The position numbers and the translations under genes were made by a program. A DNA stretch of 64,000 nucleotides from Obrimoposthia wandeli (lineage: Eukaryota). The notes below the pieces were generated by a model. It did no database searches and was not told the origin of the DNA. It worked only from the letters and a program-made list of their open reading frames with translations. Numbering within the stretch: position 1 is the first letter of the stretch; the number at the start of each line of letters is the position of its first letter. Positions 6,001-33,244 of this stretch are shown here, in pieces. The DNA lies in assembly GCA_977020255.1 (NCBI GenBank), contig CDROCS010003603.1, forward strand, positions 1-64,000, read 5' to 3'.

Positions 6001-9000
6001 AATCAAAACTAGTGCTGAAGAAACATCAACGGTATGGACTAATAAGTCCACATAATTGCGGCAAATCAATTTTACTTACTGCTTTGGCAAATCAAGAATA
6101 TCGTATAATAATTTAATGTCGTTCAAAAAAGCGGATAAGATGGTGACGGGAGTGCTGTTTTCACCCAAGACGTCGGATGAAATACACATACGGAATTTCA
6201 ATCAGCATCAAAGGCCAAAATATTCTAGATGAATCAAAACTAGTGCTGAAGAAACATCAAAGATATGGACTAACAGGTCCAAATAATGGCGGCAAAACAA
6301 TTTTACTAACTGCCTGAAGAAAATCCAGAATGACTTTAGAAAATTCACCAAGAGCGGTGTTTACTAACTTTGTCTACTTGATTGAGTTCTGCACTTTTAT
6401 ATAGAAGTGAATATATAACTGGTTGATTGAACCAAATATTATTTTATTTATTCTGAAAATATGTATTTTCAGCCTTCTGAAATGGAAGAAAAATTTTAAT
6501 AAAAAATAAAATAACACTAGAGTTAAAAATATTAAGTTGAGTTATTCGGCTTCACATGATATTCTATCATAGTAAACTTATATATTTTATAAAGAATTCA
6601 TACTTTTCAAGTAATTTTAAATTAATATTAGTGTTTAAATTAGAGTATAATTTATTTTAGAAATTATAATAATTTAATGTCGTTCAAAAAAGCGGATAAG
6701 TTGGTGACGGGAGTGCTGTTTTCACCCAAGACGTCGGATGAAATACACATTAACAGAATTTCAATCAGAATCAAAGGCCAGAAGATTCTAGAAATCAGTG
6801 CAATCAACGGTATGGACTAATAAGTCCACATAATTGCGGCAGCTTTGGCAGCCAAAAAAGCGGATAAGATGGTGACAGAATATTCTCAGCATGAAAATGA
6901 TGAATCAAAACTAGTGCTGAAGAAACATCAAAGATATGGACTAACAGGTCCAAATAATGGCGGCAAAACAATTTTACTAACTGCCTGAAGAAAATCCAGA
7001 ATGACTTTAGAAAATTCACCAAGAGCGGTGTTTACTAACTTTGTCTACTTGATTGAGTTCTGCACTTTTATATAGAAGTGAATATATAACTGGTTGATTG
7101 AACCAAATATTATTTTATTATTTCTGAAAATATGTATTTTCAGCCTTCTGAAATGGAAGAAAAATTTTAATAAAAAATAAAATAACACTAGAGTTAAAAA
7201 TATTAAGTTGAGTTATTCGGCTTCACATGATATTCTATCATAGTAAACTTATATATTTTATAAATAATTTATACTTTTCAAGTAATTTTAAATTAATATT
7301 AGTGTTTAAATTAGAGTATAATTTATTTTAGAAATTATAATAATTTAATGTCGTTCAAAAAAGCGGATAAGTTGGTGACGGGAGTGCTGTTTTCACCCAA
7401 GACGTCGGATGAAATACACATTAACAGAATTTCAATCAGCATCAAAGGCCAGAATATTCTAGATGAATCAAAACTAGTGCTGAAGAAACATCAAAGATAT
7501 GGACTAACAGGTCCAAATAATGGCGGCAAAACAATTTTACTAACTGCCTGAAGAAAATCCAGAATGACTTTAGAAAATTCACCAAGAGCGGTGTTTACTA
7601 ACTTTGTCTACTTGATTGAGTTCTGCACTTTTATATAGAAGTGAATATATAACTGGTTGATTGAACCAAATATTATTTTATTTATTCTGAAAATATGTAT
7701 TTTCAGCCTTCTGAAATGGAAGAAAAATTTTAATAAAAAATAAAATAACACTAGAGTTAAAAATATTAAGTTGAGTTATTCGGCTTCACATGATATTCTA
7801 TCATAGTAAACTTATATATTTTATAAATAATTTATACTTTTCAAGTAATTTTAAATTAATATTAGTGTTTAAATTAGAGTATAATTTATTTTAGAAATTA
7901 TAATAATTTAATGTCGTTCAAAAAAGCGGATAAGTTGGTGACGGGAGTGCTGTTTTCACCCAAGACGTCGGATGAAATACACATTAACAGAATTTCAATC
8001 AGAATCAAAGGCCAGAAGATTCTAGATGAATCAAAACTAGTGCTGAAGAAACATCAACGGTATGGACTAATAAGTCCACATAATTGCGGCAAATCAATTT
8101 TACTTACTGCTTTGGCAAATCAAGAATATCGTATAATAATTTAATGTCGTTCAAAAAAGCGGATAAGATGGTGACGGGAGTGCTGTTTTCACCCAAGACG
8201 TCGGATGAAATACACATTAACAGAATTTCAATCAGCATCAAAGGCCAGAATATTCTAGATGAATCAAAACTAGTGCTGAAGAAACATCAAATATATGGAC
8301 TAACAGGTCCAAATAATGGCGGCAAAACAATTTTACTAACTGCCTGAAGAAAATCCAGAATGACTTTAGAAAATTCACCAAGAGCGGTGTTTACTAACTT
8401 TGTCTACTTGATTGAGTTCTGCACTTTTATATAGAAGTGAATATATAACTGGTTGATTGAACCAATTATTATTTTATTATTTCTGAAAATATGTATTTTC
8501 AGCCTTCTGAAATGGAAGAAAATTTTTAATAAAAAATAAAATAAATCTAGAATTAAAAATATTAAGTTGAGTTATTCGGCTTCACATGATATTCTATCAT
8601 AGTAAACTTATATATTTTATAAAGAATTCATACTTTTCAAGAAAATTTTAAATTAATATTAGTGTTTAAATTAGAGTATAATTTATTTTAGAAATTATAA
8701 TAATTTAATGTCGTTCAAAAAAGCGGATAAGTTGGTGACGGGAGTGCTGTTTTCACCCAAGACGTCGGATGAAATACACATTAACAGAATTTCAATCAGC
8801 ATCAAAGGCCAGAATATTCTAGATGAATCAAAACTAGTGCTGAAGAAACATCAAAGATATGGACTAACAGGTCCAAATAATGGCGGCAAAACAATTTTAC
8901 TAACTGCCTGAAGAAAATCCAGAATGACTTTAGAAAATTCACCAAGAGCGGTGTTTACTAACTTTGTCTACTTGATTGAGTTCTGCACTTTTATATAGAA

Positions 9001-10056
9001 GTGAATATATAACTGGTTGATTGAACCAAATATTATTTTATTATTTCTGAAAATATGTATTTTCAGCCTTCTGAAATGGAAGAAAAATTTTAATAAAAAA
9101 TAAAATAACACTAGAGTTAAAAATATTAAGTTGAGTTATTCGGCTTCACATGATATTCTATCATAGTAAACTTATATATTTTATAAAGAATTCATACTTT
9201 TCAAGTAATTTTAAATTAATATTAGTGTTTAAATTAGAGTATAATTTATTTTAGAAATTATAATAATTTAATGTCGTTCAAAAAGGCGGATAAGTTGGTG
9301 ACGGGAGTGCTGTCTTCACCCAAGACGTCGGATGAAATACACATTAACAGAATTTCAATCAGAATCAAAGGCCAGAAGATTCTAGATGAATCAAAACTAG
9401 TGCTGAAGAAACATCAACGGTATGGACTAATAAGTCCACATAATTGCGGCAAATCAATTTTACTTACTGCTTTGGCAAATCAAGAATATCGTATAATAAT
9501 TTAATGTCGTTCAAAAAAGCGGATAAGATGGTGACGGGAGTGCTGTTTTCACCCAAGACGTCGGATGAAATACACATACGGAATTTCAATCAGCATCAAA
9601 GGCCAGAATATTCTAGATGAATCAAAACTAGTGCTGAAGAAACATCAACGGTATGGACTAATAAGTCCACATAATTGCGGCAAATCAATTTTACTTACTG
9701 CTTTGGCAAATCAAGAATATCGTATAATAATTTAATGTCGTTCAAAAAAGCGGATAAGATGGTGACGGGAGTGCTGTTTTCACCCAAGACGTCGGATGAA
9801 ATACACATTAACAGAATTTCAATCAGCATCAAAGGCCAGAATATTCTAGATGAATCAAAACTAGTGCTGAAGAAACATCAAAGATATGGACTAACAGGTC
9901 CAAATAATGGCGGCAAAACAATTTTACTAACTGCCTGAAGAAAATCCAGAATGACTTTAGAAAATTCACCAAGAGCGGTGTTTACTAACTTTGTCTACTT
10001 GATTGAGTTCTGCACTTTTATATAGAAGTGAATATATAACTGGTTGATTGAACCAA
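1..10056 (+). repeat. Tandem array of an ABCF2-like gene fragment (563-bp main unit, 234-bp sub-unit); begins before the window
   Basis: ATGTCGTTCAAAA recurs at 161, 723, 954, 1515, 1749, 2312, 2851, 3418, 3965, 4196, 4757, 5320, 5883, 6116, 6677, 7348, 7911, 8144, 8708, 9271, 9504, 9735. Spacing is 563 (4757/5320/5883) or ~234 (1515/1749). The array stops abruptly at ...GATTGAACCAA|GTACTAC near 10056. Confidence 0.97.
5883..6116 (+). pseudogene. ABCF2: Representative array copy: ABCF2-like ATPase fragment through Walker A
   Basis: VTGVLFSPKTSDEIHINRISIRIKGQKILDESKLVLKKHQRYGLISPHNCGKSILLTALANQE aligns by eye with ABCF2 '[62 protein letters not shown]'. It is truncated after Walker A, and long units have a TTTTAG acceptor 16 nt upstream of the ATG. 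Confidence 0.8.
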
Positions 10057-10089
10057 GTACTACTTCCAAGGCACAAGAAAACATTTCAT

Positions 10090-10290
10090 ATACCACCTCA
10101 ACTGACAGAAACGACATTTTGGCACTACCATATAATTCATTTTCACGAACTCATTAGCAACTGGTGAAACCATCTTCGCCAAAACACAACTTGGTAATTC
10201 TTCTTAATAGCCATTTTCCTTGTTTATTCTTTTTATCCAGAATCATCACTATATCGCTTCACCTTTTTGAATATTTTTCATTTTCTACAC
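10090..10290 (-). mobile_element. BEL/Pao LTR-retrotransposon relic (C-terminal DUF5641-type segment)
   Basis: Minus-strand translation across frameshifts gives KNIQKG-DIVMILDKRINK-KWLLRRITKLCFGEDG...AKMSFLSVE, resembling the BEL/Pao 'VGDIVLIKD..W.LGRI...PG.DG.VR...KL..L' tail. Confidence 0.5.
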
Positions 10291-10609
10291 TAAATATTTT
10301 AATTGGTATCACTTAATTAGTTTTCTCATTGCAAATAGAATCTTTTACAGCCCTAATATTTAATAAAAAATTAAAATTAAGGTAAAATTAAAAAATGATA
10401 GTAGCCTTGAAATTAGACCCTATAAGTCTATAAGGCCAACATTATTGTAAGTAAAGGTGTGTGAAAGTTATATGAAAGAGCGAAAGGAGAACGAGGGAGA
10501 ATAGTCACGTCAAGCGTATACACCAGGTAGGTTTAGGTGTGATGAGCGATTTAAATGATTATCACATTGTCATAACACATATATAAGCAAGTTGTTTGTT
10601 CCTAATAAT

Positions 10610-11450
10610 GTCAAGAAAAGAATGCTGTTGATGTAATGATAAACACTAAAATCCAATATGGTGCTCTTGTTTACCAAACATGAAATGAAGCAATGGCACC
10701 TTTCAAATAATGCCGTGTTGCATAAAAAATGTTGAGTGTTTGAATGAGATATCGCAGAAATTGAATAAAAACATTGCAAATTACAGTGTAATGAATAGTG
10801 GGTGGCGAATTTTACAGTTAAATTTTACTCTAACTAAATATAGTAATGTAATGTATGAGTGGTTGTAGCTATATTTCAACACTCCAAGATTTATACTGAT
10901 CAAAAGCAGTCGTTAATGTACAAAACTATGACTCATAGTGTTTTTTATAAAGTATTCTCGCCATACAAAAACGGAATGAGATAGTTGTAAATAGACAAAG
11001 AGTTTCACAATATACTTAATATTTAAGTAATTTAATATGTAAAGCTTCTCAAATGCCGATGAAGCTTATAGATATTCCAGCATTTGAACAACAAAATGAT
11101 CTCTCTAGAAATGTATTTATATATGAATATGATAAAGATTTTAAAAATGATAATCATGATGTTTTCAAACATTATTTTATTGATGTTATATACGTGACAC
11201 GCAATCCTGATCAAGAAGCAATAAAGTTATTATTACTAGAAACGAATGACAATTTCCATTATATAGCAAAAACAAATTTAAATAGCCTTTTAAATTATCG
11301 TAATAGTGGAATAAATAATAAGAAATAACGTAGAAAAATGTAACGTACTTTTATATAAAACATATAGTTCACATACACATAACCAGATGTGAACATTAAT
11401 TATCATACTAGCTCAAGACTTTGCATTACAACATTATATGAACCCTCATC
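10610..11450 (+). pseudogene. Degenerate N-terminal fragment of an older Polinton pPolB, outside the intact element
   Basis: KQWHLS..NKNIANYSVMNSGWRIL..TKYS, SKAVVNVQN and ORF 11053-11328 (MPMKLIDIPAFEQQN..KLLLLETNDNFHYIAKTNLNSLLN) are collinear with the in-window PolB (KEWYAS, SGWKL, TKYS, SKAVVNIQN, MPMKISNISKFERQN, NLLLLESKEQFHYI). Multiple stops and frameshifts. Confidence 0.88.
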
Positions 11451-11680: not shown

Positions 11681-11686
11681 CCTGTT
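11681..11686 (+). repeat. Left target-site duplication CCTGTT
   Basis: An identical CCTGTT follows the right end at 23769-23774; 6-bp TSDs are typical of Polinton integrases. Confidence 0.95.
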
Positions 11687-12629
11687 AGTAGGTAGAAGGA
11701 TGGAGTCTAGACCACTTGACCCTCTCACCTCTGGTGAGGCAACATATACCCTTATGGTATGGCAAGACACCCTTATGGTATGACACCCTTTAGGAGGAGG
11801 CGGGAGGCGGGGAGGGGAGGAGAGGGGTCAAGTGATCTAGACTCCACCCTTCTTTTGACTATAATCTATGGTTGTCCATAATTCAAAGGGTCAAGTGGTC
11901 TAGTCTCCACCCTTCTTTTTGAGATATACCACTATGAAAGGGTCAAGTGGCTTAGTCTCCACCCTTCTTTTTGAGATATACCACTATGAAAGGGTCAAGT
12001 GGCTTAGTCTCCACCCTTCTTTTTGAGATATACCACTATGAAAGGGTCAATTGGCTTAGCCTCCACCCTTCTTTTAGTGATCTAGTCTCCACCCATCTTT
12101 TTGTGGTCTAGTCTCCACCCTTCTTTTAGTGATCTAGTCTCCACCCATCTTTTGGTGGTCTAGTCTCCACCCTTCTTTTAGTGATCTAGTCTCCATTCAT
12201 CTTTTTGTGGTCTAGTCTCCACCCTTCTTTTTGTGGTCTAGTCTCCACCCATCTTTTTGTGGTCTAGTCTCCACCCTTATTTTTGGCTAACCACTAATTC
12301 AAAGGATCAAGTGGCTTAGTCTCCACCCTTCTTTTTTGTGATCTAGTCCATAATGAAAATTTATGATAAAGTTCACACTTATCAATTAAGAATATATGAC
12401 GTAATCATACACACACACTATTCTATGTGAAATTTAGGCTAAGTTCACTCTTATCAGTTAAGGAATGTGGTTTTAACACACACACACTATTCAATGTGAA
12501 AATTTAGACTAAAGTTCACTCTTATCAGTTAAGGAATGTATTACGTAATCACACACATACTATTCTATGTGAAATTTAGATCAAAGTTTTTTCCCAGGCT
12601 TACACATCTAAAGAATTATGGTAAAATTT
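11687..12629 (+). repeat. Left terminal inverted repeat (~943 bp) with terminal hairpin and internal direct repeats
   Basis: Reverse complement of 22917-23768. Contains 14 CTCCACCC-core units (one variant; 25-26 and 52 bp periods) and three ~70-bp units. Confidence 0.95.
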
Positions 12630-12681
12630 ATTTAAATAACATAAATTATATATTAAAATAAAATATCCTTAATAAATATAT

Positions 12682-13134
12682 TTATATACAATTTACATAA
12701 TCAATACATAGAGAAAAACATTTCAAATAAGCACAATGTTTTCCGTGTTTTCTAAACGGACATCGAATATTTTTTGGCATTTTCTTTAAATTTTTGAAAC
12801 TTTTATTATAATTCACAATTCTCAAATTTGGAAACATTCGTTTCACTAAATTAATTTTCTTTCCATCAATAGAATCCATAACATAGAATATTGTTTCAAC
12901 ATCATCAATATGAATATCAGAGCTTTCACCTTCAAACCAGGATAACTGATGATGATGATTTATCAAATATAGATTTTTTCTTTTAACTGTAAATGATAAA
13001 CTACTCCATGGTATTTGATTTTTAAACACGTAATGAAATGGACAAGTCATATCATTCACATACATTATACATAATTCCTTTGGAATATATTCTCCATTAT
13101 TATCAATAAAACATTCTAAATCAATAAAAGCCAT
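12682..13134 (-). CDS. Accessory DEDD-family/Maelstrom-like RNase H-fold nuclease (150 aa)
   Basis: N-terminal FIDLECF (DxE, Exo I-like), PKELCI, FHYVFK, HQLSW and a C-terminal CPFRKHGKHCA Cys/His cluster; intact ORF. Confidence 0.6.
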   Translation of the reverse strand: MAFIDLECFIDNNGEYIPKELCIMYVNDMTCPFHYVFKNQIPWSSLSFTVKRKNLYLINHHHQLSWFEGESSDIHIDDVETIFYVMDSIDGKKINLVKRMFPNLRIVNYNKSFKNLKKMPKNIRCPFRKHGKHCAYLKCFSLCIDYVNCI

Positions 13135-13188
13135 TTGAAAATAAAATAAAATGAAATACTAAAATGATATATTTGTTTATACTTAAAA

Positions 13189-13526
13189 TTATTTGTGTTG
13201 AAGTTTCAACCATAAAAGACTCAGAGGTCCGCAGTTTTTAGTTAATGGATTCTGACATTTAACTCGATTATAGTAGACTGGAATGTTTTCTTTTTCAAGT
13301 GTAGACACCAACTTTGCAGGATAATAGAATCCAAAGGATCAAACACTCGAATCTCGAATCTGTCAACGAATATTGCTATCCAATGTTCGCCTGGTAGATT
13401 TGAAGTATGAGTATTGATAATGTAACCTCCGGGTTTTAATGATGGAATTTTATCCAATGAATATACTCCATTAAATTTGTTATTCAATAATATTTTTCCG
13501 GATTTATGAATTTCTAAAGTACTAAT
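13189..13526 (-). pseudogene. Adenain-like (adenovirus-type) cysteine protease with a 1-bp deletion and no ATG
   Basis: YIINTH..PGEHWIAI (His) and VFDPL. Restoring one G at ~13332 gives FDPLGFYYP..VKCQNPLTKNCGPLSLLWLKLQHK* (Gln, catalytic Cys). The expected start reads ATT (ISTLEIHK) at 13526. Confidence 0.88.
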
Positions 13527-13560
13527 TTAAATAAAGAATATAATATACAATAAGCTTACT

Positions 13561-14781
13561 TCATACAATCACAGTTTTATTTTTCGTAATCTGAATTTCG
13601 GAATCAAATATTCCGTAAATCAAAACACTTGTTGGAACGGTCAAAGGAGAATTAAATCTAATTTCAAGTCTTAAATTACCAGTTTTAGGCACTTGAGTAG
13701 TGTTTATATCAAAATCTGGTGCTAATAGAAAAGTGAAAATCGAACTTCCTGATTTAAAATCAGAAAATCTGATACCATTATTCACGTTTTTATCTAAAAT
13801 ATTCATATTTCGAATAATTGACTGCATATATGCTAATGAAAAATTGTTATTATCTAGATTATAAGTTTCTCGATAATCTGTATTTCTAGCTAATGATATT
13901 GTTGAAACATTAAATGTATTGAACGTAGAAGATTTAACTTTGTATTCCTTACCACCCTGAGGTGTATCTTTGAAACCAATCAAAATGAACTTGGGTAAAC
14001 GATAGTCTCCGAATATTTGATCTTTATTAAGTTCCAAAGAACCCTGAGGAATTGAATATGTTACTAACTGAGTTTTTCTAATTGGGTAAACTGCATTCTG
14101 ACTTTGCAAACCTAACTGATGTCCAATCATTACTGAAGAATCAACTTTTACTCTTCTAACATACAATCTAGCATCTAGAATTTGAATAATTGGTTTTGAA
14201 GTTTCTGAATAGAGCGAAAAATTATGCTGATTTCTCATAAATCTCAAATGAACATTAATCCCTGGAATCAAATATTTTGGTTGATCAAAGAAATCTAATC
14301 TAATTGAATTACACAATGAAAATATTTTAGATTCACTAATCCATTGTTTACGATTTTCTGCATCATCATCATACCCACTACATTCAAGGTTAGTATACTT
14401 GGTATCACTACTAAAATTCAAAAGAGTATCGAATATAGCCTTATGAGTATACGTTCCATTTCCTCCTTCAACCTTTACATTATTAAGTGTTAGAATAACA
14501 TCTCTAAACAAAGTTTGAAACATTTAATTCTCTGGAGTTACATCGCTATCTTTCATTAAATCAGTACCATCTTCATTTACAACTTTTAATTTAATATTTA
14601 ACAAAGTATCATTCAAATCCAGATAATCTTCTTCAGATGCATGAATATTAAATTCTATGTCATTTAAATTTTTTCCAGTAATTGAATTGATTGGAAATAT
14701 TTCTTCAAAACTTGAATTTTCAATCACTACTTGAGGTAGTGGTCTATCGAAAATACACAATTCAGATTTTATACTAGTCAT
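13561..14781 (-). pseudogene. Major capsid protein (double jelly-roll, hexon-like), ~406 codons, split by one in-frame TAA at 14524-14526
   Basis: ORFs 14524-14781 (KSELCIFD..EEIFP..YLDLNDTLL) and 13561-14523 (QTLFRDV..LDFFDQPKYLIPG..GNLRLEIRF..LIYGIFDSEIQI) are in the same frame, separated only by TAA. The relic MCP at 33.7 kb has Phe at this position. Confidence 0.9.
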
Positions 14782-15167
14782 TTTTGGAAAATAGTACCTT
14801 TAAGACGTTTGTTTATACTATTTAAATTATTTCTTTTACGTTTAAGACCCTTTCCATTTTGTTCAACACAATTTGCGACTTTATTTAAACTATCAACAGC
14901 ATTATTTTTTAATTTTGGAATCAAATTGATTGTATTTTCTTTGAGAGATGAAATTATGTTTTTTGGATTTGTTAACGCAGTTCCTACCGTTTCACCAATT
15001 ACATTGGCAGCACTTGTAGCTGCTGATAAACCAACTTTTTTTAACAATGGAATAGCTAATCTAGAAATAGTTTGATACCAACCAGATCCATATTGTTTAC
15101 CAATGAAATAGGGAAGTTCACCGCCCTGTTGACTTTTGCTATAAAATTTTATAATTGATGTATTCAT
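14778..15167 (-). CDS. Conserved small Polinton protein (putative core/membrane-active; QxGG and QxGxG motifs, amphipathic segment, basic tail)
   Basis: SQQGGELPYFIGKQYGSGWYQTISRLAIPLLKKVG...QNGKGLKRKR. ATGA overlap with the MCP start; the same arrangement is seen in the relic at ~34.0 kb. Confidence 0.7.
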   Translation of the reverse strand: MNTSIIKFYSKSQQGGELPYFIGKQYGSGWYQTISRLAIPLLKKVGLSAATSAANVIGETVGTALTNPKNIISSLKENTINLIPKLKNNAVDSLNKVANCVEQNGKGLKRKRNNLNSINKRLKGTIFQK

Positions 15168-15210
15168 TTTATATATATATATATTTATATTTTAAATATA
15201 TTTATATTGT

Positions 15211-16224
15211 TTATACTTTACGTAAATGAAGAGTTAAACTAGTTTTTGCTCCATATGAAAATGGAATTAAATTACCAGAATCATCACGTATATTTACCTC
15301 GATTCTATTAATACTTGAATCTCTCATTTTCAAGTACATTGGATTATCAATTTTAACATTTACTACATCTCCATATCGATATTTTAATGATTTTAACCAA
15401 ATAGACTTTAACAGTGGAACATAATCAGATCCTACTAAGACAGAATCTGTTAAACTAGTATAAATATACATTTGATTATATGAGCTAGAAAGTGTTGGTT
15501 TTTGAAAACCTTTAATTCGTTTCTCAAAGAAAACATTATTAAAACCTAATAAAGATGCAAGTTTTTCGTCAAATAAAACTGATTTTACATTTTTCTTTAA
15601 TAAAATATCAAATAATCCGTCTGAATCTATATTACAGCTTTTAAAAATTTCATTACATTTACTGGCTATAATATTACATAATGAAGTACTATCTTGTATC
15701 AAATAATTTTGATTAAATTTTATTTCGTATTCATATTCAGCTAAATAATAAATTGTAATTCTCATTTTAGCATGAATATTTTTATTTATGTCAACAATTT
15801 CATCACTTGTTATAACATGACTAGAAATTTTTTGTATTTCATTAAAACCTATAATTTTTGATTCATCTAAAGTTTCGAATTTTAACAACATTCGATGAAT
15901 GCTGTTAATTGTACTTATTTCTAATTTTTGATTCTTTGTAATTTTGAAATTGAAAACAGTATTTAAATTATTAAAAATTAATCCATTTAAAATTGCAAAA
16001 GATACATCGAAAGTTTTCATTTCTATCTTTTCCGTTTTATAAAGTATTTTTGAATTAGTTTGTATTGTTAAAGGAGTATAATTAAATACAAATTCAGTCA
16101 AGGCAACCTCCCATTCACCATCTAAATTTAGAGAGTTTTCCCAATCTACAGTAAATTGATTGGCTGTATTGTTAGGTTGAGTACTTGGACAACTATTACT
16201 AGGTAAAATAATATATTTTGACAT
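15211..16224 (-). CDS. Minor capsid protein (penton, single jelly-roll), 337 aa
   Basis: N-terminal IILPSNS..PNNTANQFTV..LNLDGEWEVALTEF and C-terminal YIYTSL..LVG..VPLLK..NPMY..IEVNIRDDSGNLIPF..LTLHLR are typical Polinton mCP motifs. Confidence 0.88.
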   Translation of the reverse strand: MSKYIILPSNSCPSTQPNNTANQFTVDWENSLNLDGEWEVALTEFVFNYTPLTIQTNSKILYKTEKIEMKTFDVSFAILNGLIFNNLNTVFNFKITKNQKLEISTINSIHRMLLKFETLDESKIIGFNEIQKISSHVITSDEIVDINKNIHAKMRITIYYLAEYEYEIKFNQNYLIQDSTSLCNIIASKCNEIFKSCNIDSDGLFDILLKKNVKSVLFDEKLASLLGFNNVFFEKRIKGFQKPTLSSSYNQMYIYTSLTDSVLVGSDYVPLLKSIWLKSLKYRYGDVVNVKIDNPMYLKMRDSSINRIEVNIRDDSGNLIPFSYGAKTSLTLHLRKV

Positions 16225-17251
16225 TATTCAATTTGAGAAGCAAATATCCAAGAAGGTTCAGAGTATCCGTGCCACTTTACGTAATATTGTTTATTCTTAC
16301 CACGACCTTTAGTTTCTAAAATTTCTTGTATTCGATATAGTTTAGGTTTATCAATTAATTGTAACTCTTGTTTATAAAATTTTCCTTTGATGATGACGTT
16401 ATCAATATCTTTTAAAATATACATTATTGTATTTTTTATTTATAATTAATATCATGAATTTGAAAAACCTCATCACTCCAATTTTGATTAAAATTTTTAA
16501 TAAATGGACTTGTACTTATTTTTGATATTCGAACATAATCATCAATTTTATATTTAGATTTAACTTTCTTTTCTTTTAGATTTTGTTTCAACAAAATATC
16601 AAATTCATTTTTATTATTTACATCTACAGGTTTTAAACCATCTAAACCTCTATGTTTAGAATTATTATAAGCATAAATAATTTTTGGTAATACATTCACC
16701 CATTTCTTATTACCTTGTTTAGTAAAATATTTCTTTAACCGTTCTCTTAACGTTCTATTAAATCTTTCAACTACTGCAGCTTTATATTGAGAATATACTG
16801 AATAATGATTGATATTTTCAGTTTTAAATAATTTCTTAACATGTGAATTAAAAAATTCTTTACCTTCATCGGTTTGGATATTTACTGGTACATCATCAAC
16901 AATTAAAGATTCTATTGCATGTAATAAATCAATACCTGATTTTGATTTAACACCAACTGCTTTTGCAAAACGATTAAATACATCAATACAAGTTAAAATA
17001 TACTTGAATCCATTATTTACTGAAGAATAAGGAATCATTTCCATTAAATCCATCTGCCATAACGAATTAATACCATTAGTTTTATATGATCTAGTAGGGA
17101 ATTTACGTCTTAAAGGTTTATTCAGACTATATGATAATTCATTTCTTAACCATTTTTGTGTGTTTGTTTTTGATTGTTTGACTCTTTTTGTCAATTTTTC
17201 TAACCCTGTATAACCGTCTGGATCTTCTGGATTGTTCCAAATCTTTTCCAT
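16224..17251 (-). pseudogene. Retroviral-type (rve) integrase with C-terminal chromodomain, split by a 1-bp frameshift near 16430-16445
   Basis: DDE triad WQMDL / IQTDEGKEF / AVVERFNRTL. ORF 16224-16424 (YILKD..IKGKFYKQELQ..YRIQEILETKGRGKNKQYYVKWHGY..SW) is the usual Polinton integrase tail plus chromodomain; adding one A joins the two ORFs. Confidence 0.9.
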
Positions 17252-17395
17252 TGCAGCATGAAGAATTAAAATTTATAAATATGTTAGACAACTTTGTATT
17301 GTTTATCCCCATTATTATAAAAGTTAAATATATTTTAATCTGTTTATATGTTTGTATAAAACGAATGAATGTAATTATTTTCGTTATTAAGACAA

Positions 17396-17809
17396 CTATC
17401 CCCATCTTGAAGATATAACACTAGCTATTACTGATGCTATAGCGGGCAGTAGGGCCAATATGAATCCACCATTTTGATTATAAATAATGTTTCTTTTATT
17501 AATTTTACCACGTGAATTTGCTAAATTTATTAATGAATTTTTATATTTTAAAATATTATCATCAGGTTTAATTTTACCATAAATTATTTTATTTAAAATT
17601 TTTATTAAATCATCAACTACATAAATTGGAAATGTTTTCAACATTTTCATTTTATTCGTTTTTGGTACGTCAATTAAGGTTTTAAAATAAGGTAAACTTT
17701 TTGAAAATTCAATATTATTACGATCATATAATACAGTATTTATTAATTTTTTAACTTCATCTTTATCTGTCCTTTTACTATGTTTAAGAATACTCTTTTT
17801 AAAATTCAT
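17396..17809 (-). CDS. Small basic Polinton protein ending in a GG|F motif plus amphipathic helix (137 aa)
   Basis: C-terminus NQNGGFILALLPAIASVIASVISSRWG, a candidate protease-released membrane-active peptide. Confidence 0.65.
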   Translation of the reverse strand: MNFKKSILKHSKRTDKDEVKKLINTVLYDRNNIEFSKSLPYFKTLIDVPKTNKMKMLKTFPIYVVDDLIKILNKIIYGKIKPDDNILKYKNSLINLANSRGKINKRNIIYNQNGGFILALLPAIASVIASVISSRWG

Positions 17810-17810
17810 T

Positions 17811-18464
17811 TTATTTTAAAACTTTATTATTATTTATTTTGTTTAATATACGTTTTGTAATACCATTACGGTTAAATATATCAGTAACAATTCTTAAATC
17901 ATCAGGACATGATTGAGTAAAATTTAAAAATAAATAACCATGTGGTATAGATGTAGCATCATGAAACGCATCAATTAAATAACTCTTGTTATGAGGAAAT
18001 GCTTGACGAGCAATAAAATCTATCACTGTTTGATCTCTAGGATTTTTGAATAAAATCAAATAATGTACATTAAGATTACGAGTACGATGATTTCCTCCTT
18101 GATGAAATAAATTTTGGGTTATAAAAATTACAGTAACTTCTCTATGTCTTGCAATTTTTGTAAATAAATCATTAAAATCAGATTCTTTGTTAGCCTCTTG
18201 ATATAAGTCATCAATAACAATTACATCACCTTTTACGAGTCTTGTCGTCCAATTTTCATCAAAACCGTTAATAATCTTAATGTTTTTTATTTTATTAAAT
18301 TCTTGGTTTGTTAAACCAGCTTCTCCGTCACCACCTTGATGCCAATATATTTTATTAAATTTATTTTTAAACATTTTTGAATTTAATAATTTACAAACAA
18401 ATAAAGTTTTTCCGCTACCACTTGGTCCTACTACTTGAAAAGTCGAATTGTTTGTTAATAACAT
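17811..18464 (-). CDS. FtsK/HerA-family (A32-like) DNA packaging ATPase, 217 aa
   Basis: Walker A VVGPSGSGKT, Walker B VIVIDD, then ARHREVTVIFITQNLF, RNLNVHYLILFKNPRD and PHGYLFLNF. Confidence 0.93.
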   Translation of the reverse strand: MLLTNNSTFQVVGPSGSGKTLFVCKLLNSKMFKNKFNKIYWHQGGDGEAGLTNQEFNKIKNIKIINGFDENWTTRLVKGDVIVIDDLYQEANKESDFNDLFTKIARHREVTVIFITQNLFHQGGNHRTRNLNVHYLILFKNPRDQTVIDFIARQAFPHNKSYLIDAFHDATSIPHGYLFLNFTQSCPDDLRIVTDIFNRNGITKRILNKINNNKVLK

Positions 18465-18552
18465 TATATATAAATATTAATATAAAATAAATATATCAGA
18501 ATAAGTACATGTTTATAACAATAACAACATTTTATTAAATATTTATTAAACA

Positions 18553-19101
18553 TCAAAATATTCGGTCGCTGTATGAATCGGTCCAGATGAGACTTCTTCC
18601 ATCTTCTTGAATATCCGAAATCTTTGTTTCACCATAATTAATTAGAAATTGTTTCGTATTTATATAATTTTTTTTAATGTATGTCATGATATCGTTAACT
18701 TGATCTTGAAAATCTAAATTTCTAAGACCTAAAATTACGACCTTTCCAGATGTGAAAATATTTACACACAATGGATTGAAAATATTTAATCTTAAGCCTG
18801 GGAAAACCTCAGGGTCAAATGAACATGCGTTACGTAATACATTCGATAATATAAATAGATTGATACTTTGTTCTAAATTTTCACATATCGTAATTGATTG
18901 AATACCAAGTATATTTATTCTTAAAGGGTAAGAAATATTTTTAATAGGTACCTTACATCCCATAATCCTGCATTTCTTATTTCTAAAAATAAGTATTGTA
19001 TAATCTTTGGCTTTATAAACGTATTGTTCTGGTCGTGTTCGAAATTTTAATTTGGATACATCATCTAAGCAAATTCCTTTATAATTAATATTTGTTAACA
19101 T
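18553..19101 (-). CDS. TBP: Divergent TATA-box-binding protein (TBP)-like protein, 182 aa
   Basis: Two TBP repeats: LTNINY..TILIFRNKKCRIMGCK (cf. LQNIVS..TALIFSSGKMVCTGAK) and IQSIT..SFDPEVFPGLRLNIFNPLCVNIFTSGKVVILGLR (cf. IQNMV..SYEPELFPGLIYRM..LLIFVSGKVVLTGAK). Intact ATG-started ORF. Confidence 0.85.
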   Translation of the reverse strand: MLTNINYKGICLDDVSKLKFRTRPEQYVYKAKDYTILIFRNKKCRIMGCKVPIKNISYPLRINILGIQSITICENLEQSINLFILSNVLRNACSFDPEVFPGLRLNIFNPLCVNIFTSGKVVILGLRNLDFQDQVNDIMTYIKKNYINTKQFLINYGETKISDIQEDGRSLIWTDSYSDRIF

Positions 19102-19203
19102 TGTAAGTAAAATAATTAAATTATTGTATTTATATATTTTTTTTATTCAGTCTACAAATCAACCAATATCCAATCAGTCCAATCAAATCAATCATATCAT
19201 CAG

Positions 19204-22200
19204 ATGAGTATATGTAAAACTTATTCAAATATTTGTTTTTCGGATACACATTTTAATCCTCAAGAATGTCATGATATATTGAAAAAATATTATGGTTATT
19301 CATACAAAAAGATAAATTATTTCATATGTCCACAATGTTTAAGCACTGAAAATGTTGATTACAACTTATTTTATAGTCGACATGTTAGTCATTTAAAAGC
19401 ATATGAAAATGTTAGTAAGAAAAAATTATTTAAAGTACCGGCTTTAAGCAAAAGAACTGATATAATTAATGTACCATCAAACATAGTAATTTCAGCTCCT
19501 ACAATTACGTCACGAAAACGTAAAATAAATGATAATATACATACTAAAACATCATTAGAAAATAGTTATTCAATGATATCCATGAAAGTAGATCATCTCA
19601 ATCTTGTAAGTCTTAAGGTTCCAGTTTCATTATTAAACGAACTAGTGCAAATAGTGCAATTAATGGGAAAAGCAAAGATACAATACATCATAAGAATGAG
19701 GTTTGAAAAGAATGATGGAGAAACTAAAGAATGGTATGCTTCGCATCGAGCAATGATTTTTTCACATGCTGTAATTTCAGAAATGGAAAATACAATGGAA
19801 AATAAAGTTGAAGAATATTCAGAAAAAGGTAGTGGTTGGAAATTGATGAATATACTTGAATATGCATTTATTGTTACTAAATATAGTCAAATTTGTGCAT
19901 TGTCAGGTCATTCATATATTAAATCACCAAATTCTCTTACAAAATCTAAAGCAGTCGTCAATATTCAAAACTCTGATAATCTTTGCTTTATTTATGCAAT
20001 ATTGTCAATACTTAAATATAATGAAATAGACTCACATAAAAATAGACCAAGCCAATATGAAAGATTTTTAAATGATTTTGTATATAATTCCGAAGACATG
20101 CCTATGAAAATATCAAATATATCAAAATTTGAACGGCAAAATCCTGGTATAATAATAAATGTATTCATATTCAACGAGATAAGTGAAAAAGAATCAAAAA
20201 CTGATGTTATCAAGAATCCTTATATTGATATTGCATACAAATCAAAAATAAAGGAAGGAACTATAGTTAATTTATTGTTACTAGAATCCAAGGAACAGTT
20301 TCATTATATAGGAATAACTTGTCTTAACCGGCTATTAAATATTCGAACTGGAACGACTAGAATTAGCAGAAAATGGTGTGAAAAGTGTTTACATGATTTC
20401 AAAACCGATTTGTCATTAGAAAAGCATAAAGTTTTATGTGACTATAATCAAGAAAGCACTACAATGTATACTATGCCTAAGAATAAGTACGTTAAATTCA
20501 ATGATTGGTCAAAAACTATATCACCGAAATATGTCGTTTACGCTGATTTTGAATCTGTATTAGTACCAGATGAGAGTTATCATCAAAAGCATATGCCTGT
20601 CGCATCTGGCATGTTATTTATGAGTACAGATGAAATTGAAACCCAGTATCAATATAATGTTGGTGATGACTGCATAGTTAAGTTTCTTCAGTCAATAGAG
20701 AACTTGGCTAAAGAAAAGGTTTTACCATGGTATTTAGATGCTCTTAAAAACGTAATGATTCCCTTAACAAATGCAGAGATTCATACATTTAGCAATGCCA
20801 ATGAATGTTATTTATGTCACGAATCATCTGAAAAATATGTTAAAGATCACGATCACTTTACTGGTAAATATCTAGGTCCTGCATGCAATGAATGTAATTT
20901 ATCAAGAAAACTTCGTCCAACTTTACCTATTGTGTTTCATAATCTCAGAGGTTATGATTTACATCATATTTTAAAACATGCATTGAATAAATTTACTGAC
21001 TGGGATATAAATATTATACCACAATCAACAGAAAAGTTTCAAGCCATGATTGTAAGATTAGGTCAAATAACTCTGAGATTTATAGATTCTTTGCAATTTT
21101 TACAATCATCTTTGGAAAATTTAGCCGGTAAATTACCAACTATTCCATTAACAAGATCAGTTTTTCCATCTAAACTTATTGATGGCAAAGGAATATTCCC
21201 ATATGATTTTGCTACATCATTAAATGTCCTCCAGAATAAGTTAAGTTTACCAGTAAAATGGAATGATAAAATCACAGACACTGAATATCAAAAAGCACAA
21301 GATGTTTGGAAAATAACCAATTGTAGAAATATGTTGGATTATATGTTAGTTTACTTAAAGACTGACGTATATTTATTAGCTGACGTATTTCAAACATTCA
21401 GAAGAAAAGCTCTCAGTGAAGATGGTTTAGAACCACTTAACTTTTTTAGCATTCCTGGGTTGAGTTGGGCAAGTGCTCTAAAAATGTTAAAACATAAGGT
21501 TGAACTGATGCAGGATCCTGAAATGTACAACATGATTTCTTCGGGTATACGAGGAGGAATGACATTTGTCAATAAGCATCATGTAGTCGCTGATGAAGAA
21601 ACAAGTCTTTTATATATAGATGTTAATAATTTATATGGATGGGCTCTTGATCAACCTTTACCAAAAGGAGATTTTGAATGGATTCTTGATGATATAAAAT
21701 TAAACGAAATATTGCATGAAATGAAAAATGTGAACATGGAACATATTGAATATGGTTATTTTATGGAAGTAGACTTGGTAATACCAGAAAACCTTCATGA
21801 CTTTTTAGATGATCTTCCTATAGCTCCAGAAAAGAAATGTCCACCTGGTAAAAAATTTGAAAAACTTTTAATGACACATTCGCCAAAAAGTCATTATGTT
21901 ATTCATTGGAGACTATTGCAGATGTATGTTAGTTTAGGAGCAGTGGTAACAATTATTCATCGAGCAGTAAAATTCTCTCAGGCTAAGATATTCGCAGAAT
22001 ATATAGAATATAATTCAGAAATGAGATCACAAGCAACGAATAAATGTGACAAAGATTTTTATAAACTTAAAAATGTTAGTTTGTATGGAAAGACTGTTGG
22101 AAATGTTAAGAAACGATTGAATCTTCGCATCTGCACTAGTTCTACAAAATTAATCACATATACTAGCAAACCTATGTTTCAACGAACAATTGAAATTCAT

Positions 22201-22843
22201 GATAATTTAATAGCTGTTTTATTAAGAAAAGATTTTATTTGTCTCGATCGACCAAATTATATAGGCCAAGCTGTACTAGACCTTAGCAAATTACGAATGT
22301 ATACTCTTCAGTATCATGATTTGCAAATATATCGTAATTTATTCAATTGTTCAATTAATATAGTTGCCGGTGATACCGATTCATTCTTTTTGGAATGTAA
22401 AAACGTTAATTTAAGAAAACAGTTGTTACCAAAAATGATTGCAGATGGATTATTAGATACGTCAAATTATAATGTGAATGATCCATTATATTCTAATACA
22501 TTTAATAGTAAAATAGGTTTATTTAAAGATGAATCGGAAGGAAGAATGTATAAAGAATGGATTTTCTTACTTTGTAAATGTTATTCACTTAAGTTTGAAG
22601 ATGACTTTGAAAATAATAAAGCAAAAGGAGTAAATCTTAAGGGTTCAACGGTTGTACATCAAACATATTTAGACGTGTATGAAAAACTTTGCATATACTA
22701 TACCTCAAAAGAAGTTTGGAACAATAAATCATCAACTATACACAATCAAAATACAAAAGACTGCTTTCAGCTCATCAGATGACAAGCGCTATTGGATCGA
22801 GAAAAATAGAAGCCGCGCTTATGGACATTATGAAATAACATAA
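19204..22843 (+). CDS. polB: Protein-primed family B DNA polymerase with internal endonuclease-VII-like Zn motif; +1 frameshift near 22685 truncates the C-terminus
   Basis: Exo I VYADFES, Exo II VFHNLRGYD, CYLC..DHDHFTGKYLGPACNECN, YIDVNNLYG, SLYGKT, GDTDS. The +1 frame from ~22690 reads ..IQKTAFSSSDDKRYWIEKNRSRAYGHYEIT* (stop 22841-22843), the conserved Polinton C-terminus. Confidence 0.95.
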
Positions 22844-22916
22844 TAAATGTGTTTAATTTTGTATTATTCTCTGACTTCTTTCTTATTTATTTTTGATTTA
22901 ATTTTTGATTTAATAC

Positions 22917-23768
22917 AAATTTTAACATAATTCTTTAGATGTGTAAGCCTGGGAAAAAACTTTGATCTAAATTTCACATAGAATAGTATGTGTGTGATTA
23001 CGTAATACATTCCTTAACTGATAAGAGTGAACTTTAGTTTAAATTTCACATAAAAATAGTGTATGTGTGTATTAAAACCACATTCCTTAACTGATAAGAG
23101 TGAACTTAGCCTAAATTTCACATAGAATAGTGTGTGTGTATGATTACGTCATACATTCTTAATTGATAAGTGTGAACTTTATCATAAATTTTCATTATGG
23201 ACTAGATCACAAAAAAGAAGGGTGGAGACTAAGCCACTTGATCCTTTGAATTAGTGATTAGCCAAAAATAAGGGTGGAGACTAGACCACAAAAAGATGGG
23301 TGGAGACTAGACCACAAAAAGATGGGTGGAGACTAGACCACAAAAAGATGGGTGGAGACTAGACCACAAAAAGAAGGGTGGAGACTAGATCACTAAAAGA
23401 AGGGTGGAGACTAAGCCAATTGACCCTTTCATAGTGGTATATCTCAAAAAGAAGGGTGGAGACTAGACCACTTGACCCTTTCATAGTGGTATATCACAAA
23501 AAGAAGGGTGGAGACTAAGCCAATTGACCCTTTGAATTATGGACAACCATAGATTATAGCCAAAAGAAGGGTGGAGTCTAGATCACTTGACCCCTCTCCT
23601 CCCCTCCCCGCCTCCCGCCTCCTCCTAAAGGGTGTCATACCATAAGGGTGTCTTGCCATACCATAAGGGTATATGTTGCCTCACCTCTGGTGTGGCGAGA
23701 CATCCTTATGGTATGTCACCCTTTAGGGGGGGGGGTCAAGTGGTCTAGACTCCATCCTTCTACCTACT
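22917..23768 (-). repeat. Right terminal inverted repeat (~852 bp)
   Basis: Reverse complement of the left TIR; 10 GGTGGAG-core units. Confidence 0.95.
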
Positions 23769-23774
23769 CCTGTT
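23769..23774 (+). repeat. Right target-site duplication CCTGTT
   Basis: Matches 11681-11686. Confidence 0.95.
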
Positions 23775-30300: not shown

Positions 30301-33244
30301 TGAAAATTATCAAAGGAGTAAAGCGTTTAATTGTGAAAATTTATATTCTAATTGTTTAAATAGTATATTCTAATTGTTTAAGAAGTATTTTAATTCTCTG
30401 AAAAGTGTCAAAGAAGTAAAGCGTTTAGTTGTTTCAAAAAAATGATAATAAATATAAGTTGTTTTAAAAAGTAACATCAACAAGTTGATCCTGTGAATAA
30501 GTCTATGAGACGTAAATCAGAATTACTAGGATAGGAGTAAAGTTAGTAAAGAGTCATCTCACTTTCCAAAGTGTTGGAATCAATAAAGTTTATTTGTAGG
30601 CGTGCTTAATCGCATAATTGTTTTAGAATTATTTAGTTGTATTCGTAAATAAATGGTTTCCTAAAAGACCACTAGTTGATATATAAGCCACCAGCCGTAT
30701 ACACGTAAACACTACTAATCTATAGGTCAGCCGAGGGACAACCACGTGACGGTTTTCTAAGCACTGTGGTATTTGAGGATTGTGTCCCAATATTACCGGT
30801 GGAATATCGTTATCGTCGCTTGGCTCCGGCTCTTTTCCATATGTTCTGTCTAGGTTGCTTGGTTTCCTTAATCTAAAAGTTTAATCCCTAAGTCTACATA
30901 ACAACACATTAGTTTATGGAGCTTACTAGCTAAATTGTGAACACACCACAACACAATAGTACAAAAAGCTTTTCAGATTTGAGATTAGAATTAAGTAAGA
31001 TTAACACAGATAGCCACATCCATCTGTAAGCCCAATCGCTACAGAACTCACTTCAGGGGCCTCCATACGAGGATCTAAGAGCTTCAATTAGAAACTCCAA
31101 TATTACTGTTACATAAATTTATTAGTATTTGATAAATGATAATTTTTCTGAAACTGCAAAAGTACGATGTGATTTTGAATTTATAAGGGAGAGTAGCGAC
31201 AGAGTAAATTTAATGAACCGATTGCTGAAATACACTTTTCCAGTTTTATGAACATCATTTTTCTACACTGGTAAAAGAAATTCAATCATACATCAACATT
31301 CAATAATTAAAAAATCGATATTTTATAAATTTGAATAAACCTGAGACAAGAAAAACTTTGATTAATTTTTAAAGGAAATAAATCCGATCAAATCAAGCAA
31401 GCGATCATGTTCAAGAATTTTGTAAATGAATAAAAATAACTTAAAGAAGCAGATTTATTTTAATACTTCCACAACCTGAAGAATGAAATAATTAGAATCA
31501 AGTACTTTGTGTTCAATTAGTTCAAGGAACGACGAGTACCATACTCCAAAAATTTCCACGTTCAACAATGTTGCTGAAAGGTTACGAAGTAGGTTACAAA
31601 AGAAAAGTAGCAAGGCCATTTGATTTGACATAAGTAATGCATTTTCCCAGTGTACACGTGACGAAGAGGAGCGGGTTATGGTAAAGAATGCAATCGTGGT
31701 TCGCTATCTTAGTGGGAATAATATGTGAAGATGTTTCATTTTAGATTGACACAGTGTTTTGGATTAATTATAAGGTTAAAAAACAACGTATGGTTCTTAT
31801 CAAGAAATGTAACATTTCACTTGTTAAAAATATTTAGCAAAAATTGTAACACACAAACCAGTCTGTAAGTATTCATGTGATTTATGATTTTGGATATAAA
31901 ATAGTACTGCATCTGGGTCTCTCAGAACCTGAACTCTACACAGGATATATTTTCCGGTGCTCAGCTGCTTTAGCTGTGAAGGAATCGTAAACAACATAAA
32001 GTGATATGAAGATACATTTCAACTGTAAAAAAGTGAAAACATTGCATTGAAGTATATGATTAACTAACGAACAGAAAATGAAAGTGATGTGGCTCATCAA
32101 AATGATTGGGATCGAGTGGGAAAATATTATCAAGTAAAAGGACTCATCATAGACCGGACAGCTTCACCAATGTGGCCACAAATAACAACAACAAAAATTC
32201 AAGTTATGGAATTTAAAGATACATTTCAAAAAGTCACAACTCATGCCAGCGTATGAAGTGACCTATTGTGGCATGAACATAAATTTAATGACGCAACAAA
32301 AAGATCCATAGCCACCCCGCCAATCTAAGGTCATGGCGTAATTACATGCACATAACAATAATGTCTGCTGACGTGTATCACAACAAGCCACTGCCTTTGC
32401 TCAACACAGGTACGGTTGAGGATTTCTTAGAAGAAACAAAAGTGCTAACACGTATGTCAATAAGTGTCACCCATTAGCGAAGTTAATGAAACAGCTTCCC
32501 AGGACTCAGTACCTGCATATTTCAACGATTCCAGTGGCTGGCAGCCATTTCATGCTGCAAGACAAGAGAAGACACGATCCGAGAAACCACATCAGCCGAC
32601 ATTGGCGGAGGCCTATAAACAAGGTTTGCCTTTGCAGTGTCGGTTGATGATGGGGACAGCGTGGATTTAGACGCAAGGATCGTGGCATTGGCATCAGAAG
32701 GATATGCTTCGTTTCCCAGTATCGCTGCATCTAGACAGCCATAGAGGAAGATAGTTGATATGACAGAGAAAACACACATCGATACATGTGTAGAAGCCCT
32801 CTTTTTCAAGAGGATTATTGAAATCGCGCGCAAAGGACCAATAGCATGTGCGTGTTACTTCATAGGTGGCCACCATGACAAACATACATGTGCCTTGTAT
32901 CACGAGAGGTTGACGGTGGGAACCGTATACATGTGTTGCGCCTTAACCGATTGCCATGTAATGAGTCATCATGTCACCGTGTGTGTTTCGCAATCGTCGG
33001 TATCTATGGTAAGCTCATATAGGTCACAAAATGTTGAAATTTGTTTTAATATTTAGAATGTGCATGAAATGTAAAATTTTAAATTTTTAGCTTACATTTG
33101 AGTAATTACTTTACAAATTTAATGTGAGAATTATCAGATTGATGGATTATTTTTTATATTCAATTTTTACACAGTAGAAATAAGAATAAAAGATAATATA
33201 TATATCAGATTTTGAATTATAATTAACAACAGTATTTATTATAA

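Follow-up and report, generated by a model that had tools for sequence, protein, structure and literature searches.

Why would a 12-kb integrated element carry a gene for a TATA-binding protein (TBP)? The question is raised by an open reading frame (ORF) of 182 aa, running from ATG to stop on the minus strand at positions 18553-19101 of the window, the whole 64,000-nucleotide stretch of Obrimoposthia wandeli contig CDROCS010003603.1 that was analyzed. The initial annotation had read it as a two-repeat TBP inside a Maverick/adintovirus, proposing that it either redirects host RNA polymerase II (Pol II) and TFIIB to the promoters of the element or acts as a decoy.

Carrier element

The ORF lies in a Polinton of 12,082 bp, the ends of which are marked by inverted repeats and 6-bp target-site duplications (Table 1). 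The arms of the terminal inverted repeats (TIRs) are 92-97% complementary. Together with the long TIRs and the CCTGTT duplications, a protein-primed B-family DNA polymerase (pPolB), a retroviral-type integrase, a packaging ATPase and an adenain-like protease (broken here) are present, and the earlier assignment of the element to the Polintons stands. The available part of PMC8502044 gives the same set for adintoviruses, Polintons and MELD viruses: pPolB, integrase, ATPase, protease, TIRs and a 6-bp duplication.

The pPolB of L020, a near-complete element, matches PF03175 (Pfam) at 1.9e-21, and the gene in the same place in L009 matches Peptidase_C5 at 6.4e-06, which is the basis of the protease label. 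The ORFs of 337 aa and 85+320 aa gave no Pfam, PHROG or PDB sequence match; we take them to be the minor and major capsid proteins from size and synteny or position. In the window copy, the putative capsid, protease, integrase-end and polymerase-end frames are interrupted. No ORF of the element matches TFIIB, and PF00382 has 12 matches in the genome and none in the contig of this element.

The TIRs hold arrays of a 26-bp unit with a GGTCTAGTCTCCACCC core and of a 52-bp unit (window 11880-12340 and 23210-23560). About three copies of another unit of ~70 bp, with TGACGT/TTACGTAA words that are presumably CREB/ATF-like, lie at 12360-12560. The element is flanked by decayed pieces of other Polinton families (capsid, pPolB) at 33244-36444 and 10855-11328, and to its left the periodic GC and skew profile of positions 1-11000 suggests a long tandem array. 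The orf150 gene is 31-46% conserved and lies directly upstream of TBP in nine metagenome loci; a DEDD/MAEL-like nuclease fold is a guess for it.

Table 1. Coordinates of features of the Polinton within the window
Feature	Position	Strand	Remarks
Target-site duplication CCTGTT, left copy	11681..11686	+	6 bp, directly outside left TIR
Left terminal inverted repeat	11687..12636	.	begins AGTAG; tandem repeats inside
orf150	12682..13134	-	conserved; often adjoins TBP in relatives; no family match
Adenain-like protease region	13135..13564	-	three-frame read; broken in window copy
TATAAAC	13175..13181	-	47 nt before orf150
Putative major capsid protein (85+320 aa)	13561..14781	-	stop splits window copy; label presumed from size, position
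TATAAAC	13702..13708	-	~145 nt before protease region; weak
orf129	14778..15167	-	conserved; no convincing family match
TATAAAC	14811..14817	-	36 nt before putative major capsid ATG
TATAAAC	15209..15215	-	48 nt before orf129
Putative minor capsid protein (337 aa)	15211..16224	-	label presumed from size, position
TATAAAC	16370..16376	-	152 nt before putative minor capsid ATG; weak, not conserved here in other families
Retroviral-type integrase	16436..17251	-	Pfam rve 2.9e-09; end interrupted in window copy
TATAAAC	17342..17348	-	97 nt before integrase ATG
orf137	17396..17809	-	conserved; no family match
A32-like packaging ATPase	17811..18464	-	Pfam Pox_A32 8.5e-06
TATAAAC	18511..18517	-	53 nt before packaging ATPase ATG
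Non-TBP tail, residues 144-182	18553..18672	-	off-frame TBP end and remnants of deleted SSB-like gene; terminal pLDDT <50
TBP-like core, residues 1-143	18673..19101	-	reduced repeat 1 (H1 vestigial, H2 missing) and complete repeat 2
Canonical TATA box TATATAAATA	19127..19136	-	35 nt before TBP ATG; candidate host-read early promoter
Three CCAAT words	19163..19183	+	in 102-bp divergent spacer, TBP/pPolB
Protein-primed B-family DNA polymerase (pPolB)	19204..22782	+	34% identity to L020 pPolB; near-end interruption in window copy
Right terminal inverted repeat	22910..23768	.	
Target-site duplication CCTGTT, right copy	23769..23774	+	6 bp, directly outside right TIR

Identity and extent of the TBP gene

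The Pfam TBP family (PF00352) matched residues 67-130, within repeat 2 only (E=1.7e-11; 44.3 bits against a cut-off of 22.9), and a profile built from the Polinton TBP family matched both repeats of solved TBPs. All 35 matches in a sequence search of the PDB were TBPs or TBP fusions, and an ESM Atlas search returned TBP-named clusters only. The fold check proposed with the initial annotation gave the same answer. The AlphaFold model (pLDDT 86) matched TBP by Foldseek at E 1.6e-09 and was aligned along both lobes with 38 TBP entries at Z 10.9-12.9 (144-149 residues, rmsd 2.2-4.0), the next fold being found at Z 6.5. Both repeats originally recognized are present as a two-lobed fold.

The only helices in the model are residues 82-92 and 132-158, where four (H1, H2, H1' and H2') are expected in cellular TBP. 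In repeat 1, four strands of at least three residues are formed, H1 is reduced to a trace of three residues and H2 is missing; the profile alignment has an 11-residue gap after GCK in this repeat. Model and alignment agree with the original description of a shortened repeat 1 and no N-terminal extension. The Phe residues of repeat 2 (F100 and F116), one Phe of repeat 1 (F39) and the acidic D96 and E98 occupy the positions claimed for them. The protein is a member of the TBP superfamily, yet not a canonical TBP.

Past residue 143, the window copy departs from the frame of most intact copies and crosses deletion junctions. Compared with the longer copy L138, about 310 bp are missing between TBP and the ATPase, and the frame enters the remnants of the next gene. 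The last 39 residues are a frameshift and deletion scar, and 182 aa is not the normal product of the family. TBP copies terminate at 147-203 aa; among 20 copies chosen via orf150, 14 had a TBP start within the stretch retrieved, and these comprised seven of 154 aa, four of 147-162 aa and three truncated forms, with none of 182 aa. The description of an intact 182-aa ORF inside the TIRs is correct as to the ORF and its placement, but only residues 1-143 are TBP.

A gene of ~116 aa adjoins TBP and is conserved in many elements (L138:3900-4290 and L003:576-926; remnants at window 18500-18640). Its model resembles the T7 gp2.5/Enc34-type SSB fold (Z 7.2-8.2, rmsd 2.6-2.9, 101-103 residues aligned), a moderately supported assignment near the level of common matches; the ESM Atlas returned nothing for this gene. 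A weak BLAST match to a TBP lobe was ruled out by HMM and by the SSB-like fold. The gene is mostly deleted in the subfamily of the window, which nevertheless spread to many copies.

Sister TBP genes appear to contain an intron. Of 34 loci examined, 28 could be anchored, and half of these (14/28) have an AT-rich GT..AG insert of ~38-42 nt, always in the same place in repeat 1, between strands S4 and S5. Thirteen are from other families of this genome and one is the metagenome locus L015; the insert is absent from the TBP family of the window and from most metagenome relatives. A conserved intron of spliceosomal type would imply that Pol II transcribes the gene and that its spliced product is under selection. 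Among the joints listed when contigs of four runs from one sample were compared with L132, none fell at the predicted intron. The flagged TBP loci are L132-L137, L143-L145, L151, L152, L154, L158, L160, L162, L165, L166, L168, L170 and L015; flags in L001, L003, L004 and L005 were rejected, the frame there being continuous.

Distribution, phylogeny and selection

The O. wandeli genome holds at least 150 TBP matches at 92-100% identity, with an in-frame stop in 20 among the matches listed. Further copies, when sought, were found inside Polintons and beside pPolB, the neighbour of TBP in each of the 40 copies retrieved by TBP score. TBP is also present at loci that were selected through a different capsid gene (6/6, 43-46% identity) and in regions selected through a divergent ATPase (10/10, with TBP just upstream of the ATPase match in nine). 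Searches beyond this genome yielded 17 proteins of 41-54% identity and, at E<=1e-10, 90 clusters. Among 85 fetched loci, 15 match another gene of the window element too, all of them among the short-family matches. The TBP gene was present in every Polinton family sampled and in unrelated metagenome elements.

A quick maximum-likelihood tree of 85 rows was calculated, in which the family was represented by 38 of its 73 proteins together with the window, L020 and L021; 21 near-duplicate outgroup rows had been dropped. A branch with an SH-aLRT of 92 (not starred) has the 41 family rows on one side, and all four TBP-type rows of the host are placed elsewhere. The window falls within a 24-row group of short forms (93), outside which the forms with a longer repeat 1 are found. 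The window TBP is not nested among host TBPs in this phylogeny, one of the analyses first suggested for the gene, and the tree indicated no donor lineage.

Between families, pN was lower than pS in 91 of 91 pairs (medians 0.31 and 0.78), with synonymous sites near-saturated, while shared variants within the family gave an omega of 0.51 on nine changes only. Post-insertion decay has broken TBP in 3 of 14 copies (0.5 per kb), the same rate as in other genes; the figure of 2 broken among 49 copies is biased by selection on TBP score, and 3/14 is the unbiased one. Such decay is as expected of dead copies. These comparisons place the gene in an old family carried by Polintons, which evolves under purifying selection and is distinct from host TBPs.

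The genome carries a very heavy load of Polintons of several families. The orf150 matches scored were all at 100% identity (150/150) and, among the matches listed, were confined to contigs C4-C776, pointing to a recent burst in which copies arose by the many hundreds. A TBP copy at L151:4055-4627 has a tandem internal duplication of repeat 2, and in L020 and L021 the longer form of TBP is accompanied by KilA-N and PLA2-like genes.

The host has at least four TBP-type loci. The set (L126 at G000:C238:871796-875365, L128, L129, L130 and L131) includes a head-to-head pair of canonical TBP genes, two divergent TBP-type genes that lack introns and are near-identical to each other, and a further TBP-type locus. 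Several Brf-like loci were also seen (L173-L176), and the nearest named matches of host TFIIB are from flatworms, which makes a host of flatworm type likely.

DNA face and regulator surfaces

Residues were compared between 74 rows of the Polinton TBP family and 16 cellular rows, using yeast TBP numbering. The family retains N69 (73/74), F116 (73/74), F190 (74/74) and F207 (74/74). Three of the four intercalating Phe are kept, the position of F99 being occupied by Pro in 70 of 74 rows. Other DNA-face residues are replaced in a family-fixed way: V71N (69/74), V122R (73/74), T124M (74/74), N159S/T (74/74), V161T/S (74/74), L205N (74/74) and I194R (63/74). Because these polar substitutions on the concave face are fixed in the family, an altered DNA specificity is predicted. 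The N-lobe, which has lost a Phe and gained an Arg and an Asn, is presumably the one that reads base-pair step 7/8, where the candidate target described below departs from the TATA consensus. The Phe positions agree with the Arabidopsis numbers in the accessible text of PMC10005294.

The acidic stirrup pair is likewise conserved (E186 in 69/74 rows and E188 in 72/74; D96 and E98 in the window copy). In the available text of PMC7221094 (Ravarani et al. 2020), TFIIB is contacted by the acidic pair of the C-lobe, and the basic residues of N-lobe H2 form the surface for TFIIA, TAF1, Brf1, Mot1/BTAF1 and NC2; the known viral TBPs it describes have diverged at both. Its readable supplements contain no mention of Polintons. 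As aligned here, the Polinton family keeps the putative TFIIB-contact pair, and the short forms have deleted the H2 regulator surface. Conservation of the stirrup suggests TFIIB recruitment, and loss of N-lobe helix H2 suggests escape from control by TAF1, Mot1/BTAF1, NC2, TFIIA and Brf1. A predicted complex of residues 1-150 with a TFIIB core (P0177, 84% identical to a host TFIIB exon), calculated without DNA, scored 0.11 against a mark of 0.34, which speaks neither for nor against the contact.

A TATA variant upstream of packaging genes

We consider it likely that the viral TBP is made early, binds TATAAAC and brings host TFIIB and Pol II to the packaging and putative capsid genes. According to the accessible parts of the literature, the TATA consensus is TATAWAWR (PMC1935006) and the box is kinked at steps 1/2 and 7/8 (PMC1935006, PMC10005294 and PMC5175364). 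TATAAAC departs from TATAWAWR at position 7. In the window, each of the seven TATAAAC on the cassette strand has a gene start or the protease region 36-152 nt downstream of it, and none occurs in the inverted repeats. Taken alone, the window has nine TATAAAC on both strands against 4.9 +/- 2.3 expected, which is not significant and counts against late-gene control through this box.

Counts were extended to 25 loci, 114,515 bases in all, with each family or contig represented once. These loci are not fully independent, four being from this genome and several from related metagenomes. TATAAAC occurs 77 times on the TBP strand and 15 times on the opposite strand, with 18.0 expected. No such excess was seen for TATAAAA (65, 56 and 54, respectively) or TATAAAT (51, 52 and 43), and the G7 word showed a small excess (30, 12 and 21). 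C7 is fixed in elements of 26-47% GC, without enrichment of A7 or T7 words. Of the 76 TATAAAC boxes in 16 loci, 52 are followed, at a distance of 20-120 nt, by an ORF of at least 80 aa, most often at 32-37 nt, compared with a background of 12.4% of positions; the same placement was found for 6/47 A, 8/38 T and 1/27 G variants.

Gene by gene, within 160 nt upstream in 17 loci, TATAAAC precedes the ATPase (10/11), major capsid (8/9), orf129 (7/8) and orf150 (5/6) genes. It was found before none of 13 TBP and none of four pPolB genes and before 2/13 SSB genes, and TATAWAWR precedes TBP in 7/13 and pPolB in 4/4. In a wider set of 24 loci, TBP is preceded by TATAAAC in one (L017) and by a canonical-type TATA in 14. 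The TATATAAATA TATA upstream of TBP is retained in 46 of 49 copies, and the CCAAT words in the TBP/pPolB spacer presumably form an NF-Y site. The L017 case counts against late-gene control, as do two other results: the box is rare before integrase (4/9), protease (2/7) and putative minor capsid (2/9) genes, and L020 and L021, with the longer repeat 1, have few boxes and no TATAAAC before the ATPase. L021 has TATAAAC ahead of its PLA2-like gene and of two small ORFs.

It also counts against this reading that the Polintons compared all carry TBP (6/6 other-capsid loci and 10/10 divergent-ATPase regions), so that the box can be linked to the gene only tentatively. No Polinton in viral_contigs was matched with ATPase, major capsid, integrase or pPolB queries; the one match, L172, is unrelated.

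TATAAAC is a specific candidate target for the redirection of host Pol II and TFIIB to element promoters that was originally suggested. In the proposed sequence of events, TBP and pPolB would be transcribed early by the host machinery from the divergent spacer, TBP from its canonical TATA; expression by host Pol II at this stage is suggested by that TATA and by the conserved GT..AG intron of sister families. The viral TBP would bind TATAAAC ahead of the packaging and putative capsid genes and recruit host TFIIB and Pol II through its acidic stirrup, while the loss of H2 would let it escape N-lobe regulators. The packaging and putative capsid genes would in this way be turned on late. Such a switch is likely because TATAAAC precedes most of these genes and not TBP or the polymerase, where "late" is a label taken from gene type and not from kinetics. 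The variant TATA stands before putative late but not early genes, as with viral TBPs of the herpesvirus type. Whether one 150-aa TBP, devoid of the regulator surface, re-specified to TATAAAC and acting via host TFIIB and Pol II, drives an early-to-late transcription cascade throughout a widespread clade of Polintons in animals seems to us evenly balanced.

Comparison with cellular and viral TBPs

With cellular TBPs (PF00352; eukaryotic TBP/TRF and archaeal TBP), the Polinton protein shares the two-lobed saddle and the equivalents of N69, F116, E186, E188, F190 and F207. It differs in its low identity (~22%), in the vestigial H1 and absent H2 of the short forms, in the Pro at F99, in eight family-fixed DNA-face changes and in its candidate site, TATAAAC as opposed to TATAWAWR.

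The TBPs of Nucleocytoviricota and other large dsDNA viruses have the same fold (Foldseek E 3.6e-08 to 1e-3) at 9-20% identity to the Polinton protein. Most large dsDNA viruses with TBP homologues have their own polymerase. In the available text of PMC7221094, viral TBPs have generally lost the N-lobe regulator signatures, a likeness to the Polinton family, and have diverged at the TFIIB-contact positions, often alongside a viral TFIIB. In contrast, the Polinton TBP keeps the acidic pair and belongs to a 12-kb element with no TFIIB or RNA polymerase gene.

The TBP mimics of beta- and gammaherpesviruses (KSHV ORF24, EBV BcRF1 and HCMV UL87) also serve viruses that lack their own RNA polymerase. 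As described in the accessible part of a preprint (bioRxiv 10.1101/2025.08.25.672222), the mimic directs host Pol II to late genes via a variant TATA (TATT), and KSHV ORF24 shares with the Polinton TBP a polar, Asn-rich DNA face, Asn having taken the place of hydrophobic residues. The same source gives ORF24 a length of 752 aa, four retained Phe and no acidic stirrup, and has it bind Pol II directly through its N-terminal domain and need five further viral factors. The Polinton protein, by comparison, has ~150 aa, keeps the stirrup and has lost one Phe and H2; no partner gene was found in the window element. By analogy, it resembles a late-gene TBP mimic of the herpesvirus type, although it is not a member of that family.

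Alternative explanations

The protein might instead serve as a general booster or an alternative TBP, unconnected with TATAAAC in particular and adding only unregulated TBP activity during replication, with the box a weak TATA read by host TBP or a paralog. In the accessible text of PMC10005294, TATAAAcg retained 27% activity in Arabidopsis protoplasts, so that cellular TBP can use a C7 box at a reduced level. Partial activity of this kind, the several TBP paralogs of the host, the few boxes in L020 and L021 and the fact that every Polinton compared carries TBP, none being found TBP-less, would all be accommodated. We nevertheless regard this explanation as unlikely, given that C7 is fixed across the whole range of GC content with no enrichment of A7 or T7, and that the DNA-face substitutions are near-invariant in 74 family members. 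A repressor or decoy, which would occupy TATAAAC or host TATA boxes or titrate TFIIB and so silence late or host genes, appears more improbable still. Loss of an intercalating Phe and of H2 could give a non-productive complex, but the TFIIB stirrup is retained in 69-72 of 74 rows, the box lies at core-promoter distance from the ATG, and the known viral TBP mimics acting on Pol II, as far as the sources available describe them, are activators. The decoy half of the initial proposal has lost ground for these reasons, with three Phe and a family-fixed new DNA face also conserved and a matching cis box in existence.

Use of the TBP fold outside transcription, for example in bending AT-rich DNA during replication or packaging while another factor reads the box, is very improbable. 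The gene does adjoin pPolB and the SSB-like gene in many elements; against this, the conserved acidic stirrup has no DNA role, and the box is TATA-like, stands ahead of ORFs and is missing from the inverted repeats of the window. Least credible of all is a recently captured fragment or pseudogene of host TBP carried as passive cargo, a reading to which the scarred C-terminus of the window copy, its degraded element and the neutral decay of copies after insertion might seem to point. Host TBP-type genes lie elsewhere in the tree from the 41 family rows, pN is below pS in every pair at near-saturated synonymous sites, and the gene recurs in at least 150 copies, in every sampled family and in unrelated metagenome elements. 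A one-off capture is incompatible with these findings.

Significance

The novelty of a TBP in such an element, left open in the initial annotation, is weakened by Starrett et al. 2021 (PMC8502044), where the legend of Fig. 5 lists "TBP" for MELD viruses with adintovirus-like PolB, the carrier element not being identifiable from the legend; an SSDBP label appears in Fig. S2. In the available part of that paper, TBP is a label only, with no family, residue analysis or promoter. A term search found no TBP mention in the accessible text of the coral polintovirus paper (PMC11131425) or the cryptophyte PLV paper (PMC12220804). Repbase and most subscription papers aside, the literature covered gave no account of a Polinton TBP family or a Polinton TATAAAC box other than the Starrett legend. 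No description of the timing of Polinton capsid or packaging gene expression was found there either.

The Polinton TBP gene is real, conserved and specific enough for testing. Late-gene timing bears on whether Polintons form virions; with a dedicated TBP and a matching box it can be tested directly, and late genes gain a marker recognizable from sequence. In addition, the family amounts to an experiment of nature on TBP, since DNA-face residues that are otherwise near-invariant have been exchanged consistently; the replacements predict a TBP re-aimed at a G:C pair at position 7 with its TFIIB contact kept. If true, the protein and its box would be a compact natural orthogonal TBP-promoter pair and, among viral switches of promoter specificity for Pol II, the smallest known, sigma-factor-like and housed in a transposon-sized virus. 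It would be convergent with herpesvirus ORF24, yet would retain the TFIIB route.
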